Source: Nibricoccus sp. (GTDB lineage: Bacteria > Verrucomicrobiota > Verrucomicrobiia > Opitutales > Opitutaceae). From it: a stretch of 64,000 bases of DNA. This document shows positions 29,469 through 61,243 of this stretch, one piece after another. The notes below the pieces were generated by a model, which saw only the letters and a program-made list of their open reading frames with translations, had not been told where the DNA came from and did not search any database. The stretch spans positions 1,056,001 through 1,120,000 of the forward strand of contig JASGHG010000001.1 in assembly GCA_047602425.1 (NCBI GenBank). The letters run 5' to 3'. A program made the position numbers and the translations under genes. Position 1 is the first letter of the stretch; each line of letters begins with the position of its first letter.

Positions 29469-29711
29469 CTACTTTTTGGCAGCGGCCTCGGCGCGCTTCT
29501 GCCGTTCCTGATCCTCTTTCCGCTGGGCGTTTTCAATCCAATCGTGATCGTCCGCCATCCGTTGCGCCTCCGCCATATCGGCGGCAGCACCGCTTTTTTT
29601 CAATTGCTCGGGGCGAGTCGCGAAATTGGAAGTACTCCACTTAAACGACTTGCAACCTCCAAAAGAGGAAATGACTGCGAGCGAAAACAATAGGATCTGG
29701 AATATTTTCAT
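29469..29711 (-). CDS. small putative lipoprotein
   Basis: MKIFQILLFSLAVISSFGGC lipobox-like start; 22 nt downstream of the 464-aa gene. Confidence 0.6.
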   Translation of the reverse strand: MKIFQILLFSLAVISSFGGCKSFKWSTSNFATRPEQLKKSGAAADMAEAQRMADDHDWIENAQRKEDQERQKRAEAAAKK

Positions 29712-29733
29712 TGGGCAATATTCCCTCTCAACG

Positions 29734-31128
29734 TCATTGCAGCTTGTAGGGACGCCTGAGAATACGCGCGTAAAGTTCGTCGAAGGCCGCGCCTGTGCGC
29801 TGATCCGCGATATTTTCGCCGGTGCGAATGGTTTTTGTCGGTAGAAAATTGTTCACGAGCACGCAGTAGTCGCGATTGACCATGATGCCGAGGAGTTCGC
29901 CGGTCTTACTCAGCACGAGATCGCCGGCCGAGGTCGAAAAATCGCCAAACAGGCGTTTCATGAGCCGATTGTCCATACGCACGTAACTGGGTTCCTCCGG
30001 ATCGAGCTTGAACGCAACCTCGCCGTAACCCGTGCCGCCATTGCTGATCAGCACGGCTTCCGGAAATTTAAAAGGCTCCAGCGCCGTTTGGTATATCTTT
30101 ACTCCGATCGCCTTGGCCTGCGCCGGATCGACTGGAATCGCGATGATGCGCGGATCGCACGAAAGGAAACGGATGTCGGGCGCGCCGCCCTTGTAAGCGC
30201 CTTTGGCAAACGTCACGGTCAGCTTGTCGAGATCGAGCGAATTCTCCCGCAGCACAAACGGCGTGTCGTCCACATGCACCAATGCGTAGACTTGCTTGCC
30301 GTCCGCGACGAAGACCGTTTTTGCCTCTTTCGTCTTGTTTCCCGGACCGAAGAGAGAAGCGCGGGCGGCGTTGAAGGTCGTGCTAACGCGGTTCGCGAGA
30401 AAATCGTTGAAAAGCGTATTGGCGTTGATCGGGCGGTTTTCGCGGATTTCGGTCGTGAGCTGGTTCGATTGTTGTGCGAGTTGGCCCACGCCTTGGGCCA
30501 GCTGTACGGTGGTTTCCTGTACTTTCTGGCGCTCTGTGCGCTCAGCTTCGACCTGCGTCTTGAGCGATTCGGCGCTTTCCTTGAGCAGAAGTTTTTCCTG
30601 CTCGGCGACTTTCACCGCCACGCTGAGATTTTCGATCTTGGAGCGTGCCTCGGCTTGCGCGGCTTCCATTTGCGCGAGTTGTTGTTTCTGGCGCTCGGCT
30701 TCGGCCTGGCGTTGCTCAAGGTCGCGCTGCAATTGCGCCAGACGCTCCTTCGACATCGCCGCTTCCTGTGTGACGGTTTCGACGCGACGGCTGAGCTCCT
30801 GCGCATTGCGTTGGGTTTCCGTGAGCGTGTTGGCGAGGCGCGATTTTTCAGACTCCAGTGAATTCAGGTTTTTCTCGCGGTCCTGTAAATTGGTTTGGGT
30901 CGTCTGAAGCTCCTGCGCGAGTTGCTGGCGCTGGGCACGTTCGTCTTCGAGGGAAAGCTTCATCATGTCTACCATGTCGGTCTTGGTCGTGGCCTGATTA
31001 CCCCCGCTGGCCATCGCGGGCACGGGCGCTTGTTGCGGGCGTGCAGGCTCTGACTTTTCCCAATTGGTCAACGCAAGGATGTTGAGCAAAAGGAAATCGC
31101 AGATAACAAGGAGGAGAGTCTTGTTCAT
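29734..31128 (-). CDS. membrane-anchored coiled-coil protein with an ExbD/MotB-like Asp helix and a trypsin-like C-terminal domain
   Basis: N-terminal LLLVICDFLLLNILAL; Q/E-rich coiled coil of about 180 aa; ...YALVHV...DPRIIAI...STSAGDLVLSKTGELLGIMV. Confidence 0.7.
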   Translation of the reverse strand: MNKTLLLVICDFLLLNILALTNWEKSEPARPQQAPVPAMASGGNQATTKTDMVDMMKLSLEDERAQRQQLAQELQTTQTNLQDREKNLNSLESEKSRLANTLTETQRNAQELSRRVETVTQEAAMSKERLAQLQRDLEQRQAEAERQKQQLAQMEAAQAEARSKIENLSVAVKVAEQEKLLLKESAESLKTQVEAERTERQKVQETTVQLAQGVGQLAQQSNQLTTEIRENRPINANTLFNDFLANRVSTTFNAARASLFGPGNKTKEAKTVFVADGKQVYALVHVDDTPFVLRENSLDLDKLTVTFAKGAYKGGAPDIRFLSCDPRIIAIPVDPAQAKAIGVKIYQTALEPFKFPEAVLISNGGTGYGEVAFKLDPEEPSYVRMDNRLMKRLFGDFSTSAGDLVLSKTGELLGIMVNRDYCVLVNNFLPTKTIRTGENIADQRTGAAFDELYARILRRPYKLQ

Positions 31129-31137
31129 GACGCTTGG

Positions 31138-32925
31138 TTAGGCAGTCTTCGAAGCAGGGGGCGGCGGAGGTGGCGTGGCGGCGGAAGGCGCGGCGGGGGT
31201 CGGGACTTTGGCGGGGGCTATCTGGGCGAGCGGTGTGGGTTTCGCCGCGGGCACGGAGGCCACCAATGCGGCGGGCATGGCTGGCGCGGGCGCCTGGCTG
31301 TCGAGAATCAACTGGCGCTTGTAGGGACGCACGTGGCGAATTTTCACGAGCGCTACACAGGTGATGCCAAAAAGATTCGACGAGTAGGCCGCGAGCAGGT
31401 TGGCGGGCACGATGCCCAGAACCTGCAGGACCAGCGACATCGCCGTACCGCCAATGCCGATATAGAGGCCGCCGTCGAAAAGGTTCTCCTCGTTTTCCAT
31501 GAGGCGCAGCTTGACCAGCGGCGAGACGGACGAGCGCGAGATCTCGCGGATTTTTCGCAGGCAGAACAGATACATCGCGACCTGCAGCGCGGCGAAGAAG
31601 ATGATCGAAGCTATCGTTTTTGTTTCCATGGTGACAGGGGGAGAAGGCGGCGTTTGAGGTTGAACATCAGAGGTGTTGGCAAGAACAGGAATGGTGATCT
31701 TAAAGCGAAATTCCGAAGGGGGAGCAGCCTTCAATAAAAATGGTTCGGTCGCCACCACGAGCAGACCAGCCGTCAGGATGGCCAGCACGCTACTCTGCAT
31801 GCGCAACGGAGACCCGTGACCGACATGCGATTCGACGAACTCCCTTTGCAAACCGGCAAATAGGCAAAAAGCGCCGAGGAGAAATCCTACATATTTCAAA
31901 ACAAGAGTGATTCGCGGATACAGTAATGCCACTTCCGCAATCCAACCCAACGCGGGCCCGGCCTTCCGGTTGATTGGCACTTGGTAGAGCATCAATTGCT
32001 GCACGGCGCCCTGGCCGTACGAGAGTGAAAGCTTCAGGTCCTCAAGCCCCGTTTTGCCGTATTGGATCAAATAGGAAGCAACACGATCCGCAGAATTGGA
32101 GAAAAGCGCGGCCGTATAAATCAGCGGCAGATTCTCGGTCGCGAGACGCGAAAGGTGCGCGTACTCCCCCACCGTTTTGGCATTGTTGGTCGTGCGAAGA
32201 AGCTCGCATAACTGCACCCAATCGAGACGTTTGCCGAGGGAAAGCAGGTCGATATAAAACGTTTCCAACTCGCCCATTTCCTTCTGCGTCACGGAGGCCT
32301 CAGCCATTCCGCGCAACTCGCGTTGAAGCGAGCCCGAGAGGTGATCGCCCTGATAGAGCAGCGCCGTGAGCAAAATCACGGCATCGAGCGCCTGGCCGCC
32401 CGCGCGTTTTGCCGGTACAAACTGGGTCGTCTTTTCGATCTCGCGGGTTTGCAACACCGCCTGCACACCCAGCGAACGTGAGTTATTAAGGTACGTCAGC
32501 AGGTTCTGGCGGGCTTTGGTCGTGATAAAGAAAGTGAGGACGGGCGTGCTCTCCTTGCGGCCCGTGTTTTCCTTCAGATTAAAAAGCGGATCGAGAAAAG
32601 GATCCCAACCACCCCATGCCACCCATTCGGGACGTCGTGTAGCCACATCACGGATACCGCGATCGAGCGCGGAAGACTTTGGATCCTCCACCAAACGCGC
32701 CGCCGCCAGCACCAATTCCGCAGGGCCAAGCTTTTCGGAATCAAGGATCTGTTTGCCAAACGTCGCCACCGAAGGCGACTCGAGGCCGGCTTGCTTGAGT
32801 ACGGCGGGCGTCACCGACTTCAGATTCACCGGCACCATCCAGGCAACCAGCAACAAGACAATGCCGGCGCAGAGCCATGCCAGCGCCGCAGGCAGATTCT
32901 TGCCGTTGCCTGATGAAGTTGTCAT
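31138..32925 (-). CDS. polytopic membrane protein with a MotA/TolQ/ExbB-like C-terminal channel region
   Basis: N-terminal TM, large soluble domain, several TMs; LYIGIGGTAMSL...NLLAAYSSNLFGI; Pro/Ala tail. Confidence 0.7.
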   Translation of the reverse strand: MTTSSGNGKNLPAALAWLCAGIVLLLVAWMVPVNLKSVTPAVLKQAGLESPSVATFGKQILDSEKLGPAELVLAAARLVEDPKSSALDRGIRDVATRRPEWVAWGGWDPFLDPLFNLKENTGRKESTPVLTFFITTKARQNLLTYLNNSRSLGVQAVLQTREIEKTTQFVPAKRAGGQALDAVILLTALLYQGDHLSGSLQRELRGMAEASVTQKEMGELETFYIDLLSLGKRLDWVQLCELLRTTNNAKTVGEYAHLSRLATENLPLIYTAALFSNSADRVASYLIQYGKTGLEDLKLSLSYGQGAVQQLMLYQVPINRKAGPALGWIAEVALLYPRITLVLKYVGFLLGAFCLFAGLQREFVESHVGHGSPLRMQSSVLAILTAGLLVVATEPFLLKAAPPSEFRFKITIPVLANTSDVQPQTPPSPPVTMETKTIASIIFFAALQVAMYLFCLRKIREISRSSVSPLVKLRLMENEENLFDGGLYIGIGGTAMSLVLQVLGIVPANLLAAYSSNLFGITCVALVKIRHVRPYKRQLILDSQAPAPAMPAALVASVPAAKPTPLAQIAPAKVPTPAAPSAATPPPPPPASKTA

Positions 32926-32992: not shown

Positions 32993-33568
32993 ATGTCGTT
33001 GCCAATTGTTCACTACAACTCGCCTGTCCTCCGTAAGAAAGGTGCAAAAATCACCGTATTCGACACCGCTTTGCGCAAGCTGGCGGACGACATGATTGCC
33101 AGCATGCACGAAGCGCGCGGCATCGGGCTTGCCGCTCAACAAATCGGCCAGGCGATCCAACTTTGCGTGGTCGATCTGCGCGAAGCCGAGGCCGATTTTA
33201 CGTGGGAACTCGACGGCGCCCATCCGCCCTTGGAGCTGTTCATGCCGATGGTGATCGTCAATCCCGAGCTCACGCTCCTCCCCTCGCCCAAAGAATCCTA
33301 CGAGGAAGGCTGCCTTTCGTTTCCCGACATTCGTGGCGATATCGACCGGCCCGACGCGATTTCGGTCAAATTTCAGGACGCCGACGGCACGCCGCATCAG
33401 ATGACGTGCAATGGACTCTTCGCGCGCTGCATCCAACACGAGGTCGACCATCTCAATGGTGTTCTCTTTATCGACCGCATGTCGAAAAAAGTCCGCAGCC
33501 CCCTCGAAAAAGCCATCAAGCAGCTCGCGCAGGAAACGAAGGAAGCGAGCAAGGCGGAAAACAAATAA
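32993..33568 (+). CDS. def: peptide deformylase
   Basis: GIGLAAQQIG, EEGCLS, QHEVDHLNG. Start at ATG 32993. Confidence 0.96.
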   Translation: MSLPIVHYNSPVLRKKGAKITVFDTALRKLADDMIASMHEARGIGLAAQQIGQAIQLCVVDLREAEADFTWELDGAHPPLELFMPMVIVNPELTLLPSPKESYEEGCLSFPDIRGDIDRPDAISVKFQDADGTPHQMTCNGLFARCIQHEVDHLNGVLFIDRMSKKVRSPLEKAIKQLAQETKEASKAENK

Positions 33569-33636: not shown

Positions 33637-35178
33637 TTACAACAAATCAGCCGCGAGTTCGGCGAGCTTCGAGCGCTCGCCTTTCGTCAACGTGATGTGC
33701 GCCGCGATGGACTGGCCTTTCATGCGGTTGTGGCAGAAAACCAAACCGTTGCTACGCGAATCGACGTAGGGATTGTCGATTTGGGCTGGGTCGCCAATGA
33801 GCACGATCTTCGATCCCTCGGAAATGCGCGTGATCACCGTTTTTACCTCGTGAGGCGTCAACTGCTGCGCTTCATCGAGAATAAAAAAGCGGCGGGCAAT
33901 CGAGCGTCCGCGGATGAAGCAAAGCGCTTCGACTTCGACCAATCCGCTCTTGATCAGCCGCTCGTACGGCTTGATGACCGGACCGTTGTTGTGACTGTGG
34001 CCGTTGCCGCTCACGTGTGCAGGCTGCGGCGTATTCATCGCCATCACCATGTCGTCGTGCTTCTTCTTTTTCTTTTTGGAAACCTTCTTCGACGCAAACT
34101 GCGGCTCCTTTGGCGGTTTTGACGGGATAAGCACTTCAAGCGCGTCGAAATACGGCTGCAACCAAGGCTTCATTTTTTCGTCGAGCGTACCGGGCAGAAA
34201 ACCGATGTCCTTGCCAAGCGAAATCACCGGGCGCGAGATCGAAACGCCGTCGTATTTCGAATTTTCGTCCTGCGTCTGGTAAAGCGCGCAAGCGGTCGAA
34301 ATCAGGGTCTTGCCCGTGCCGGCTTTGCCGAAACACGTGATAAGACCAACCGAATCGTCGAGCAGCGCGTCCATGAAAAACTGCTGTTCAAGATTGCGGG
34401 CGCGAATGGGAATGCCGCCGGGCGCTTTGACGAATTCCGGAATCTTCAGGCGGCGCACGATGTTGTCGCCATAATAGCGCGCGGGCATCGTCTTGCCTTC
34501 GTGTGAACGCAGGAGGACGTACTCGTTGAGATGAAGTTTTTTCGCCTCGGCTTCCTCAAGTTCGAACTCGCCTTCGGAACAAAAGCGTTGGAGCTCGTAA
34601 ATGGTTACGGGGATTTCCGGGTAAGCGACTTCCTCAACCAATTCCGGAACCTTGTCATTGAGGTAATCTTCCGATTCCAGTCCGACCGCGCGCGCCTTGA
34701 GCTGCACATTGACGTCTTTCGTCACCAGAATCGTCGGTGGCGGAAAACGTTCCTGCACGAAGAGCGCACAGGCGATGATGCGGTTGTCCTTTTTACCGAG
34801 GTCCGGCAGCACCGCGCGAAAACGCTGCATGGCCGGGCTAGTGAAATTCTGGTCCACGAGGTAGCGGTTGATCACGACGGACAGCGTGCCGCCGTTTTCG
34901 AGCTGTACACCTTCGAGCATGGTGCGCGAATCGGGAAGCAGTTCCTGCAGGATGCGGTGCACGCGGCGTGCGTTGCGCCCCCGCTCGGTCGACTGCTCGG
35001 TTTTAATGGCGTCCAGCTCCTCCAAAACCTCGACGGGAATTACGAGGTTATTGTCCTGAAACTTGTAGATCGACTGTGGATCGTGAAGCAGGACGTTGGT
35101 GTCCAGGACAAAGGTTTTAACCTTTGCTGAGACCTTGAGCTGCGGTTGAGGTTCGCTGACCTTGCTCAGGTGTTCCAT
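33637..35178 (-). CDS. PIN-PhoH fusion (PhoH2 family ATPase/RNase)
   Basis: FVLDTNVLLHDP (PIN), VTKDVNVQLKA, GKAGTGKT, DIGFLPG, FIRGRSI, DEAQQLT, GDPAQID. Start at ATG 35178. Confidence 0.93.
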   Translation of the reverse strand: MEHLSKVSEPQPQLKVSAKVKTFVLDTNVLLHDPQSIYKFQDNNLVIPVEVLEELDAIKTEQSTERGRNARRVHRILQELLPDSRTMLEGVQLENGGTLSVVINRYLVDQNFTSPAMQRFRAVLPDLGKKDNRIIACALFVQERFPPPTILVTKDVNVQLKARAVGLESEDYLNDKVPELVEEVAYPEIPVTIYELQRFCSEGEFELEEAEAKKLHLNEYVLLRSHEGKTMPARYYGDNIVRRLKIPEFVKAPGGIPIRARNLEQQFFMDALLDDSVGLITCFGKAGTGKTLISTACALYQTQDENSKYDGVSISRPVISLGKDIGFLPGTLDEKMKPWLQPYFDALEVLIPSKPPKEPQFASKKVSKKKKKKHDDMVMAMNTPQPAHVSGNGHSHNNGPVIKPYERLIKSGLVEVEALCFIRGRSIARRFFILDEAQQLTPHEVKTVITRISEGSKIVLIGDPAQIDNPYVDSRSNGLVFCHNRMKGQSIAAHITLTKGERSKLAELAADLL

Positions 35179-35198
35179 TGTGGATAACTTGTGGATAA
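35179..35198 (-). promoter_or_regulatory. two tandem consensus DnaA boxes
   Basis: Minus strand TTATCCACA-ag-TTATCCACA-ATG. Confidence 0.75.
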
Positions 35199-35321
35199 CC
35201 GTGCATGTGGTTTGCAGTTTGTCGAGCACGTCCGCGAGAAACTGAAAAAATAAATTTTCTGTGAGAGAATTTTCCCGCGCGCGGAGCTGTGTATCGGAAT
35301 TTCCCCGACGGCCCTCTTCGG

Positions 35322-38862: not shown

Positions 38863-38986
38863 GCCTCCAAATTGCGACGCCGATCCATTCCAACACAACT
38901 GCAAACACACACCCACGTTCACCATGGCATTGCAATTCGCGCCAAAACCAGTACTCCCTCCCCAATCCCCCCAAACCCATACACCC

Positions 38987-39796
38987 ATGTGGCATAAGCT
39001 CAAGGAACAGATCCCAGGAATCGCTCTCACCGTAGTTGTGCTTCTGATCGCAGGCACCCTTTTCTTCGTAAAGGTGTCGCGGGAAAACGCACGGCAGCAG
39101 GCCGCGATGGAGGCGCTCAGCAAACAGAATGACGATCTGCGCACCGCATCTGAAGAGAACCGCCGTCAGACCGAGGCCCTCAATGCCATGCTCAAGGACG
39201 CCATTGCCAAACGCGCCGCTGATGCACTCATGACCGACGACGAATATGCCAAGGTCAATGCCGAGAAAATCGACCGGCTTGCCGACGCGATCGCGACGAA
39301 AATCCAGCCTTTCAATCCGCTCCCCAAAACCCCCGAGGAAGCCGAACGCCTCCAAAACGAACAGGTTGACAAGGTGTCTTCCCGTATGACGGAGAAGATT
39401 CAGCCCATCCTCGCCGAAATGGCCAACGATCAGCATCTCACGCGCGACTCCATTAACGCTTACAGCCAACGCATCTCCGACCAGATCGGCGTGGTGCTCA
39501 CGGCCGAACTCGCGAAAAACCAGCAGCTAAACAATAACCTGCTCGCCTCGCAGGCCGTGGCCCAGGATTCGATCAAGCTGACCCACGAAGTCACCGCCCT
39601 CTATCTTAGCTCAATGAAGGATCAAGGCGTGATCACCCGCCTCCTCACGCTGCCTGCCAATGTCGTCAAAGACGTCGCCACCCTCAGCTTCGTGAGCAGC
39701 AAGGACCGTCGCAATATGGAAGCCCGTCTCGTCGGCGAAATGAACACCCTCGAGACCCGCCTCGCCGAAATCCAGAGCAAGATGCCCAAAAAGTAA
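38987..39796 (+). CDS. membrane-anchored coiled-coil hypothetical protein
   Basis: Single N-terminal TM followed by long helical Q/E/K-rich sequence; alternative start at 38924. Confidence 0.8.
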   Translation: MWHKLKEQIPGIALTVVVLLIAGTLFFVKVSRENARQQAAMEALSKQNDDLRTASEENRRQTEALNAMLKDAIAKRAADALMTDDEYAKVNAEKIDRLADAIATKIQPFNPLPKTPEEAERLQNEQVDKVSSRMTEKIQPILAEMANDQHLTRDSINAYSQRISDQIGVVLTAELAKNQQLNNNLLASQAVAQDSIKLTHEVTALYLSSMKDQGVITRLLTLPANVVKDVATLSFVSSKDRRNMEARLVGEMNTLETRLAEIQSKMPKK

Positions 39797-59538: not shown

Positions 59539-59556
59539 GTTGCAGAGGGGTCGAGG

Positions 59557-59991
59557 TTATTTGCCCGTGGCGCGGTAGACGGTCTCAATCGAGACCTGAG
59601 TGATGCCCACTTTGCGAACTTCATCTAGGGCTGCAACGGTCGGGCCGTATTTGGCGCGATCGTCACCAGCCAGCAGGATGCGTGGATTTTTCGCATTCTG
59701 TTTGTATTGAAAAAGGCGCGGTGCGAGCTCGCGATCCGTAATCAGATCCCTATCCCAGTAGATACCGGCATCGGTTACCTGCAAAATGACTGGAGGGTCG
59801 GGATTGACCTGGGTCGAGGTAGGTGGAGCAGCAACCGGCAGTTCCACCGGAATGGAGAAAATCTTGTTCAACGTCAGGGTGTACAAGACGAAGGTTGCCA
59901 AGAGGAAGAAGACGACGTCGATCAGAGGAATGATCTGAATGTTCGCTCTCTTTCTACCTGAGGATGTTTGTGCTGCGCCGCCACCGGCCAT
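59557..59991 (-). CDS. exbD: biopolymer transporter ExbD
   Basis: IQIIPLIDVVFFLLATF, LAGDD. Confidence 0.93.
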   Translation of the reverse strand: MAGGGAAQTSSGRKRANIQIIPLIDVVFFLLATFVLYTLTLNKIFSIPVELPVAAPPTSTQVNPDPPVILQVTDAGIYWDRDLITDRELAPRLFQYKQNAKNPRILLAGDDRAKYGPTVAALDEVRKVGITQVSIETVYRATGK

Positions 59992-60052
59992 GGTAAGAAT
60001 GGGTTAAGATTAAAGGTGCTTTAGTGACTATAACGCGCGAAGCGGATATTTA

Positions 60053-60490
60053 TTACTGTCCGGCCGGGCGAATACGGGTTTCGAGGTAAACTTTATCAAA
60101 GCCGATCATGCGGGCTTGGTCGAAGACGTAGCGGACCTGACTGAAGTACGCGTTCTCGTCACCGTTGATAAAAATTCTGGCCGATTTGCCTTCGCGGGCG
60201 AAGTAATCACGCATGCGGTCGAGGAAAACTTCCAAGCTGATGCGCTCCTTGTTCCAACCCAAGGAGCCGTCAACTTCAACCGTCACTGTAACGGTATTAC
60301 TCGGATCGCGGCCCTCGCCGGAGACCGCACCCGGCAGCGTGACCGTCAATCCCTCGCTCTTATTGAGCGTGAGTGTAAAGAGAACGAAGGTTGCCAGCAG
60401 AAAGAAAACAACGTCGATCAAAGGAATGATCTGGATGTTCGCTTTCTTAGGACCACCTGGTTTGCCACCACCTGAAGAGCCACCGGCCAT
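60053..60490 (-). CDS. exbD: biopolymer transporter ExbD
   Basis: IQIIPLIDVVFFLLATF, INGDE. Confidence 0.93.
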   Translation of the reverse strand: MAGGSSGGGKPGGPKKANIQIIPLIDVVFFLLATFVLFTLTLNKSEGLTVTLPGAVSGEGRDPSNTVTVTVEVDGSLGWNKERISLEVFLDRMRDYFAREGKSARIFINGDENAYFSQVRYVFDQARMIGFDKVYLETRIRPAGQ

Positions 60491-60577
60491 GGTTGGAAAG
60501 TATTAAATGTGAAAAGGGGCGAGTGTTTCGGCCGATGCGAGAAGCATCAGCCGACCGAAGCGTACCGAATCCAGTGA

Positions 60578-61243
60578 TTAGGAGGTATGAGTTTCGTTCT
60601 TCTTGAGGATGAGCTCAAGAGCGTTCGAAACGTCGGAAATCTCGTGTTTAGCCTGCTCCGCACGGGAGTTGAGGATGTTGAAGGGGAGCAAACCGAGAAT
60701 GGCGATGAAGATACCGCAAGCGGTGGCGATGAGCGCTTCAGCGATACCGCTCATCATGCTGTTGGCAGCTTGAGCGAGGTCACCGGTCAATTCACCGAAG
60801 GTGCGCATCATGCCGGTCACGGTACCAAGAAGACCAAGGAGAGGAGCGGCGGTAATGACGGTGTCGAGAACGGCCACACCCTGCTGGAAGCGTTGGAGCT
60901 CCTGATTGGAAGCGCGGATGAAAGCGTTGGAGAGGGATTGATCGCGGTGCGTGAGAGCATAGCAGAGAATGCGAGCGAGGTAATCCTTGCTCTTCTTGCC
61001 AAGGGCGATGGCGCTTTCGAAGTCGCTTTGCTCAACATGCTCGAGCATCTTCTCAACAACTTCCGGCTCACGGCTGGAAGCTTCGCGCCAAATGAAGATG
61101 GCACGCTCAATGGCGACAGTGACGCCGAGGAAAGAGATAATCAGAATGGGCCACATGATGATGCCACCTTCGTGGAAAAGCTCCATCGGAGTCCGGTGCA
61201 TCAAAAGCTCGAAACGGGCGAGAGGCAGAATACTGGTGATCAT
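60578..61243 (-). CDS. exbB: MotA/TolQ/ExbB proton channel protein
   Basis: GGIIMWPI, APLLGLLGTVTGM, GIAEALIATACG. Confidence 0.94.
   Translation of the reverse strand: MITSILPLARFELLMHRTPMELFHEGGIIMWPILIISFLGVTVAIERAIFIWREASSREPEVVEKMLEHVEQSDFESAIALGKKSKDYLARILCYALTHRDQSLSNAFIRASNQELQRFQQGVAVLDTVITAAPLLGLLGTVTGMMRTFGELTGDLAQAANSMMSGIAEALIATACGIFIAILGLLPFNILNSRAEQAKHEISDVSNALELILKKNETHTS

Follow-up and report, generated by a model that had tools for sequence, protein, structure and literature searches.

A conserved membrane gene pair of Verrucomicrobiota as a candidate ion motor with a predicted pseudoprotease head

Here, we analyze a locus of three minus-strand open reading frames (ORFs), called A, B, and C, in a 64-kb stretch of DNA from Nibricoccus sp. 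(GCA_047602425.1, contig JASGHG010000001.1), hereafter the window. A reading of the sequence alone had proposed that the locus encodes an ion-driven motor related to MotA/ExbB and MotB/ExbD, with a small lipoprotein as a further part. All three ORFs lie where the sequence-only reading had put them (Table 1), and the start of B is 9 nt from the stop of A. The motifs it had quoted are present as well, namely, G490-x-x-G493-T494 and A513-Y-S-S-N-L-F-G520 in A, Asp11 within the N-terminal hydrophobic helix of B, and YALVH, DPR, and SAGDLVLSKTGELLGI in the B head. Neither Pfam nor NCBIfam held a family for A or C, and B matched generic coiled-coil models only. The lipoprotein did not survive comparison as a component of the system, as ORF C found no homolog by tblastn in 156 loci (no match below an E value of 0.13) and no lipoprotein-like ORF followed B in any of the 139 loci having enough downstream DNA. 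Judged by sequence comparison, ORF C appears to lie outside the A-B module.

A and B are a conserved, single-copy, and unannotated gene pair. When 301 genomes sampled across the phylum were searched with a profile of the A core, 114 had one strong copy each, a count that, like those that follow, reports conservation rather than independent events because the genomes are related. The core was found in 23 of 26 genomes of the Opitutaceae, the family of the window, in 46 of 47 and 13 of 23 genomes of two families from other classes, and in 0 of 23 and 0 of 15 genomes of two further families. The pair spans three classes of Verrucomicrobiota, and its distribution is vertical. The proposed adjacency of the two genes held across the phylum: a B gene with a mid-membrane Asp followed A in 154 of 156 loci, and the other two are contig ends (the 156 exclude L110, L111, and L130, which are weak chance matches without an A core). 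The membrane Asp, on which the proposal also depended, was equally constant. Among the 154 B starts, 146 were picked by a pattern that requires the Asp and 8 by a pattern that does not, and an alternative residue at the Asp11 position was seen in none. Likewise, B followed A in 77 of 79 named loci, most of them from Opitutaceae or metagenome-assembled genomes of Verrucomicrobia, and the remaining two stop at a contig edge. At an E value of ≤0.001, A had 1495 protein homologs and B had 1633. Those whose source names were shown were called hypothetical proteins or mislabeled as coiled-coil proteins and came from Verrucomicrobia or Opitutaceae, and the source names of close relatives included Victivallaceae, Lentisphaeria, Kiritimatiellales, and Pontiella.

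Table 1. Features at and beside the A-B locus (window positions; TM, transmembrane)
Feature	Position	Strand	Description
Gene A	31138..32925	-	595 aa, six predicted TM helices; candidate MotA/ExbB/ZorA-like ring subunit
A residues 34-335	31921..32826	-	entirely helical domain without an assigned fold, predicted to be periplasmic; long-form members only
A residues 432-545	31291..31632	-	conserved core: TM1, short cytoplasmic helices, TM2, TM3
TM2 motif G490-x-x-G493-T494	31444..31458	-	aligned with GLLGT of ExbB/TolQ; register from hhalign
TM3 motif A513-Y-S-S516-[T/N]517-x-x-G520	31366..31389	-	aligned with ALxTTxxG of ExbB/TolQ/MotA
Gene B	29734..31128	-	464 aa, with one TM helix, then a linker, a coiled coil, and a head of predicted trypsin fold; candidate axle subunit
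B residues 4-22	31063..31119	-	TM helix with Asp11 (31096-31098), conserved on all faces
B residues 52-232	30433..30975	-	coiled coil of ~27 nm, taking 0.15 nm for each residue
B residues 233-464	29737..30432	-	predicted trypsin/HtrA-fold pseudoprotease head: His285, Arg327, and Ala401 at the triad positions
ORF C	29469..29711	-	80 aa, lipoprotein-like signal; not a conserved member of the module
Peptide-deformylase-like gene (presumed)	32993-33568	+	divergent from A, ~70 nt between starts

The A protein consists of a conserved core and more variable additions. Averaged hydropathy gave six transmembrane (TM) segments, and an AlphaFold2 model of residues 8 to 545, with a mean predicted local distance difference test score of 90.9, ordered them as a TM helix, an all-helical domain, two TM helices, a disordered linker, TM1, a pair of short helices, TM2, a short loop, and TM3. 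The extra TM helices and large soluble domain that had been pointed out as unusual are indeed present here, but they belong to a long form only. The majority of members outside Opitutales, including those of Lentisphaeria and Kiritimatiellia, are short forms of ~170 to 230 aa with one N-terminal TM helix and the core, and the core makes up essentially all of a ~180-aa short form. Searches recovered the periplasmic domain of the long form from 3 of 4 long-form genomes and from 0 of 42 short-form genomes, and it is therefore optional. We note that the C-terminal tail of A (window 31138-31290, minus strand), ~50 Pro/Ala-rich cytoplasmic residues, is longer than in most relatives and is unconserved. 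Within the family, the motifs of A are conserved beyond chance. The wrongly trimmed L122 and L140 were excluded from the core alignment. In an alignment of 242 cores, Gln448, Leu487, Tyr488, Gly490, and Gly520 are invariant, Asp484, Gly493, and Ala513 are each kept in 240 sequences, residue 516 is kept as Ser in 238, and residue 494 is Thr in 234 and Ser in 8. A conserved Thr or Ser within a Gly-containing motif is present on both of the final TM helices of A, TM2 and TM3, as expected of a stator.

B has the complementary feature of a stator, one TM helix bearing a conserved intramembrane Asp, preceded by just 3 to 4 cytoplasmic residues. Conservation, scored in an Opitutales set of 83 A and 76 B sequences, was highest in A TM3 (0.86) and the B helix (0.85), followed by A TM2 (0.78), A TM1 (0.67), and the A anchor TM0 (0.47). 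Conservation was most one-sided in A TM1 and almost without a side in the B helix (100-degree moment, 0.013). The pattern in A TM2, A TM3, and the B helix is as expected if the B helix is an axle enclosed by a ring whose lining is TM2 and TM3, an arrangement described for ZorAB (PMC11946911). Finally, B residue 16 (~31081-31083) and A residue 517 (~31375-31377) are both Asn here and often Asn in Opitutaceae, while elsewhere B16 is mostly Ser, Ala, or Thr and A517 is mostly Thr. The two Asn residues could be a compensating pore pair or could reflect shared ancestry alone.

Beyond the membrane, B is built as a stalk with a head. Residues 52 to 232 contain no Pro and have a hydrophobic period of 3.5 residues with an amplitude of 21.4 versus ≤9.2 at the other periods tested, which bears out the coiled coil of ~180 residues that had been proposed. 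Coiled coils rise 0.15 nm per residue, and linker plus stalk make up ~190 to 400 residues. The head is predicted to be a chymotrypsin-like double beta-barrel, a confident trypsin/HtrA fold, in agreement with the trypsin-like pattern noticed earlier in the B C terminus. B could then be an active, membrane-tethered serine protease energized by A, and besides the fold itself, we note that 50 of 53 Opitutaceae retain His285, as do 14 of 20 other Opitutales, and that residue 400, neighbor to the nucleophile position, is Ser in 40 of 53 Opitutaceae. The nucleophile position itself, however, is Ala401 here and, among 113 heads, is Arg in 61, Val in 15, Pro in 10, Ala in 8, Ser in 3, and Cys in 0. Moreover, alignment to the three HtrA proteins of the genome placed Arg327, conserved in at least 90% of sequences, at the catalytic Asp position, and Asp325 of the DPR motif, which had been put forward as part of the protease pattern, corresponds to the preceding noncatalytic turn Asp. 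In 36 short-form sequences, His was outside the four commonest residues at position 285. The B head lacks the His-Asp-Ser triad of S1 proteases, and because the catalytic Ser is found in 3 of 113 heads and Arg takes the place of the catalytic Asp, we conclude from the alignments that it is presumably a catalytically dead pseudoprotease; that B is an active protease seems extremely unlikely.

The head resembles HtrA, DegP, DegS, and the S1C pseudoprotease domain of RsgI9 in its double beta-barrel but differs from them in its replaced catalytic Asp and Ser, in the absence of a PDZ domain, and in its attachment, through a long coiled coil, to a TM helix that bears an Asp. Pfam searches with 113 B heads and 85 B N termini gave nothing meaningful, and a search of PDB sequences with a profile of the head gave no relevant match. 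The RsgI9 domain indicates that a head of such fold can bind a ligand (PMC12203970), and the B head may bind a peptide or glycan.

We conclude that A and B probably form a divergent 5:2 ion motor of the MotAB/ExbBD/ZorAB type in which the B dimer is its own periplasm-spanning shaft. In such a motor, five A subunits would form a ring in physical contact with two B helices, and Asp11 of B would carry an ion past the ring of Thr494 and Ser516/Thr517 residues of A. Ion passage would drive relative rotation, and the coiled-coil shaft and head of B, whose C terminus would be periplasmic, would be turned or tensed. The pseudoprotease head would grip a partner in the outer envelope, to which the shaft would transmit force. 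By analogy to what has been proposed for GldM and for proteins that fuse a trans-pore helix (TPH) to a vWA domain, direct drive would be the simplest mechanism because B is without an OmpA- or ExbD-type domain and no TonB/TolA-like gene was found conserved nearby. We speculate that the optional periplasmic domain of long-form A may hold the ring still. A more specific version, which we offer tentatively and hold with less confidence, is that the pair constitutes a separate ancient family of 5:2 motors. Its axle would be a rigid drive shaft of 27 to 50 nm with a pseudoprotease gripper, and it might combine GldM-style direct drive with a MotA/ExbB-type pore to power an envelope process common to Opitutales, Lentisphaeria, and Kiritimatiellia.

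Whether A is homologous to MotA and ExbB is less clear, and a number of results weigh against the motor. The motifs of A align in register with those of the stators, as the sequence-only reading had it, but profile, position-specific scoring matrix (PSSM), and fold tests were all nonsignificant, and similarity of A to ExbB/MotA above chance is not established. PF01618 did not match A, and the best family member reached an E value of 0.0018, with matches in 2 of 92. Comparison of A to ExbB by hhalign gave a probability of 4 to 5% and an E value of ~0.01; ExbB topped 19 decoy membrane families narrowly (21.2 versus 20.2), and block-shuffled ExbB alignments averaged higher (23.1) than the true one. 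The A profile placed the PF01618 proteins of the same genome 28th, 163rd, and 264th, and its seven secondary matches in the 301 genomes were unrelated membrane proteins. We rejected these seven as stators, as six sit at the RnfG position in what we take, from sequence and context, to be Rnf-type operons and one sits in a presumed Tad-type operon. The A-core profile had no match among PDB sequences at an E value of ≤10, and a search of PDB sequences with two short-form A proteins gave no relevant match. With a PSSM of MotA and ExbB, short-form A ranked within the top 7% of 363 membrane proteins taken as background and Opitutales members scored at the level of that background, and in the same test, the B helix was in the top 15% and in register in just 18 of 85 sequences.

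Structure comparison likewise did not reach significance. Foldseek of the A model found nothing at an E value of ≤0.001 among PDB and viral models, and the fold matches of A were generic three-helix bundles, with ribosome recycling factor, designed bundles, spectrin, and CorA/Mrs2 ranking equal or higher. ZorA chains were the sole stator-family chains among the fold matches listed for the A core, and no ExbB, TolQ, or MotA chain was among the 50 listed in either structure-alignment run. In the ESM Atlas, the A core had no named match and the N-terminal part matched hypothetical Verrucomicrobiota clusters only. Moreover, the TM2-TM3 loop of A is ~10 residues shorter than in ExbB and MotA, and at position 517, where the second pore Thr would be, 178 of 242 cores have Thr and 64 have Asn; Nibricoccus A is one of the latter, with Asn at the equivalent of ExbB Thr181. 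A predicted complex of four A cores and two B helices scored 0.16 against a mark of 0.32 with no controls folded and is not evidence either way.

The same results would suit a structural envelope or division scaffold, in which a single TM helix and coiled coil sit on a polytopic partner and the resemblance to stators is a coincidence among Gly/Thr-rich helices. Every test of stator homology was nonsignificant, the distribution is single copy and vertical, and the A family is closed, with 516 representatives at an E value of ≤0.001 among 1.84 billion proteins and no spillover into the much larger MotA/ExbB family. A scaffold, however, leaves unexplained why a helix conserved all the way around should have an invariant charge at its center, as well as two invariant polar positions on the last two helices of A, and we consider it quite improbable. 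The ion motor that we favor instead is built on signals that are weak but concordant: Thr/Gly motifs in register, an Asp that is invariant, conservation around the whole of the B helix, and the fold match to ZorA.

The A-B pair shares features with each of the known ion motors. [quoted passage not shown] It differs from them in that A, with its shorter TM2-TM3 loop, goes undetected by PF01618 and by other profiles, the place of the ExbD/TolR domain is taken in B by a coiled coil and trypsin fold, TonB/TolA is not a conserved neighbor, and the genomes checked retain their own ExbB/TolQ genes. A replacement of ExbBD or TolQR by A-B was rejected, as five PF01618 genes are present in the genome of the window and 4 to 9 matches were obtained in each of five short-form genomes; in those five, the A genes were not among the matches listed at an E value of ≤0.5. 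The genuine exbB that had been quoted for comparison is present in the window, followed by two tandem exbD paralogs (L161:420-2106, which is window ~59550-61240, minus strand).

TPH-vWA pairs, reported in Verrucomicrobia, place a tolQ-like gene beside a gene that joins a trans-pore helix carrying an Asp directly to an effector domain, in the absence of tolR and exbD, and direct drive has been proposed for them (PMC12204202). A-B is similar in its adjacent genes and in its Asp-bearing helix fused directly to an effector domain. TPH-vWA pairs, however, have a recognizable TolQ homolog and a vWA head and are mostly heterologous, whereas A is unrecognizable by profile and B has the long linker and stalk and a trypsin pseudoprotease head. 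GldLM/PorLM, the motor of type IX secretion, is also a two-gene operon whose inner subunit is prolonged as a periplasm-spanning shaft, in GldM a long dimeric one of 18 nm, and GldLM is described as lacking obvious sequence homology to MotAB and as reported in Bacteroidetes only (PMC9389320). The B shaft differs in being a coiled coil, and A carries MotA/ExbB-type motifs. Like MotA, short-form A has four predicted TM helices; A TM3 resembles AALTGTFLG of MotA, and the Asp-Phe of B resembles ADF of MotB. Unlike MotAB and PomAB, A-B lacks the large torque domain in the cytoplasm, the plug, and the OmpA domain; MotB_plug matched none of 85 B N termini, and the B head has the trypsin fold rather than an OmpA-like domain. 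A role as a flagellar stator was rejected. Among 79 genomes picked, flagellin was matched in 16 of 67 that are A positive (leaving 51 without a match) and 2 of 12 that are A negative, and the window genome has a separate motAB. An unrelated MotA/ZorA-like protein with an LGLIGT motif and its own C-terminal coiled coil is encoded in a genome of another class (L111:4651-5661, plus strand).

ZorAB is similar in its three-TM A core with a polar pair in TM2 and TM3 and in the Asp of its B subunit, and A-B could conceivably be an antiphage membrane system like Zorya or Kiwa. ZorA was among the fold matches listed, and one PADLOC model of KwaA matched 13 of 92 core sequences, with a best E value of 6.8e-7. 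The KwaA signal, however, was strong in one protein only, and comparison of the core profile to a KwaA-like gene of the phylum gave a 1% probability over 21 columns. We rejected the similarity, which was not reproduced against the KwaA-like protein, as probably compositional. KwaA is described as a tetramer with a soluble partner (bioRxiv 2023.02.26.530102); Kiwa has a soluble DUF4868 partner, and the partner of A is a TM protein. Nor does A-B have the OmpA-like peptidoglycan-binding domain, the long cytoplasmic ZorA tail, the ZorC/D/E neighbors, or a PADLOC ZorA match. Finally, the pair is single copy, vertical, and near universal in some families (46/47 and 23/26), its neighbors are housekeeping genes with no effector, and a search of viral contigs did not find it. 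We consider a defense role very unlikely. Separately, in a Verrucomicrobiota genome, a KwaA-like gene that is followed by a 290-aa gene and lies beside a type I restriction specificity-like gene (L194:605-2019, minus strand) probably represents a genuine Kiwa system.

What surrounds the pair varies among families. A neighborhood survey found no third gene conserved near A-B across classes, and none points to an output, a further point against the motor. Within the named loci, the divergent gene upstream of A, which we take from its motifs to be deformylase-like, was present in 74 of 79, the rest being cut by contig ends. As that arrangement is kept, the two genes may share a promoter region. 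About half of the Opitutaceae loci have a PIN-PhoH (PhoH2-like) gene (window 33637-35229, minus strand) at a distance of 2 to 5 kb upstream of A, and an unannotated 290-aa, single-TM, mostly helical protein with no family above cutoff (window 38924-39796, plus strand) is encoded near the pair in 16 Opitutaceae loci. In one short-form family, genes for a Ser/Thr kinase-FGE-sulfatase and an ABC-F protein follow B and appear to be translationally coupled (L141:7957-10548; L197:1477-4083).

A nonmotor envelope sensor might also be envisioned, in which the B head binds unfolded outer membrane protein, peptide, or glycan across the periplasm and the coiled coil signals to A as a gated channel or transducer, with Asp11 serving in gating or in assembly. 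In one short-form family, 23 of 27 loci have a Ser/Thr kinase gene after B, but in other families it is there in 0 of 16 short-form loci, and it is not a recurrent neighbor in Opitutales. Moreover, the few cytoplasmic residues of B and the lack of a recognizable signaling domain in A speak against a sensor, and Thr/Gly pore motifs together with an Asp are a known motor signature. We regard a sensor as unlikely.

The A-B pair appears to be new to the literature. No description of it was found in a full-text search that covered neither supplementary homolog tables nor most subscription papers. Surveys of stator diversity describe nonflagellar A subunits that carry additional domains, along with B subunits of various kinds, and the available portions of these surveys held no mention of a B subunit with a coiled coil and trypsin fold (PMC12505986; PMC12905483). 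We conclude that A-B is a real, unannotated, and conserved two-gene machine and probably a new variant among the 5:2 ion motors. Even if it is not a motor, it would still be a conserved complex that lacks annotation and includes a pseudoprotease spanning the periplasm.

The known 5:2 motors each drive a major process of the envelope, be it motility, nutrient import, outer membrane stabilization, type IX secretion, or phage defense. If A-B is a motor as well, it would be a new branch of the MotAB/ExbBD/TolQR family and would show the extent to which a motor core can diverge. Short-form A, at ~180 aa, would be among the most minimal of motor rings and an attractive structural target. Ultimately, a conserved motor invisible to profiles would imply an unrecognized energized process in Verrucomicrobiota, which are abundant in the environment and in the gut.

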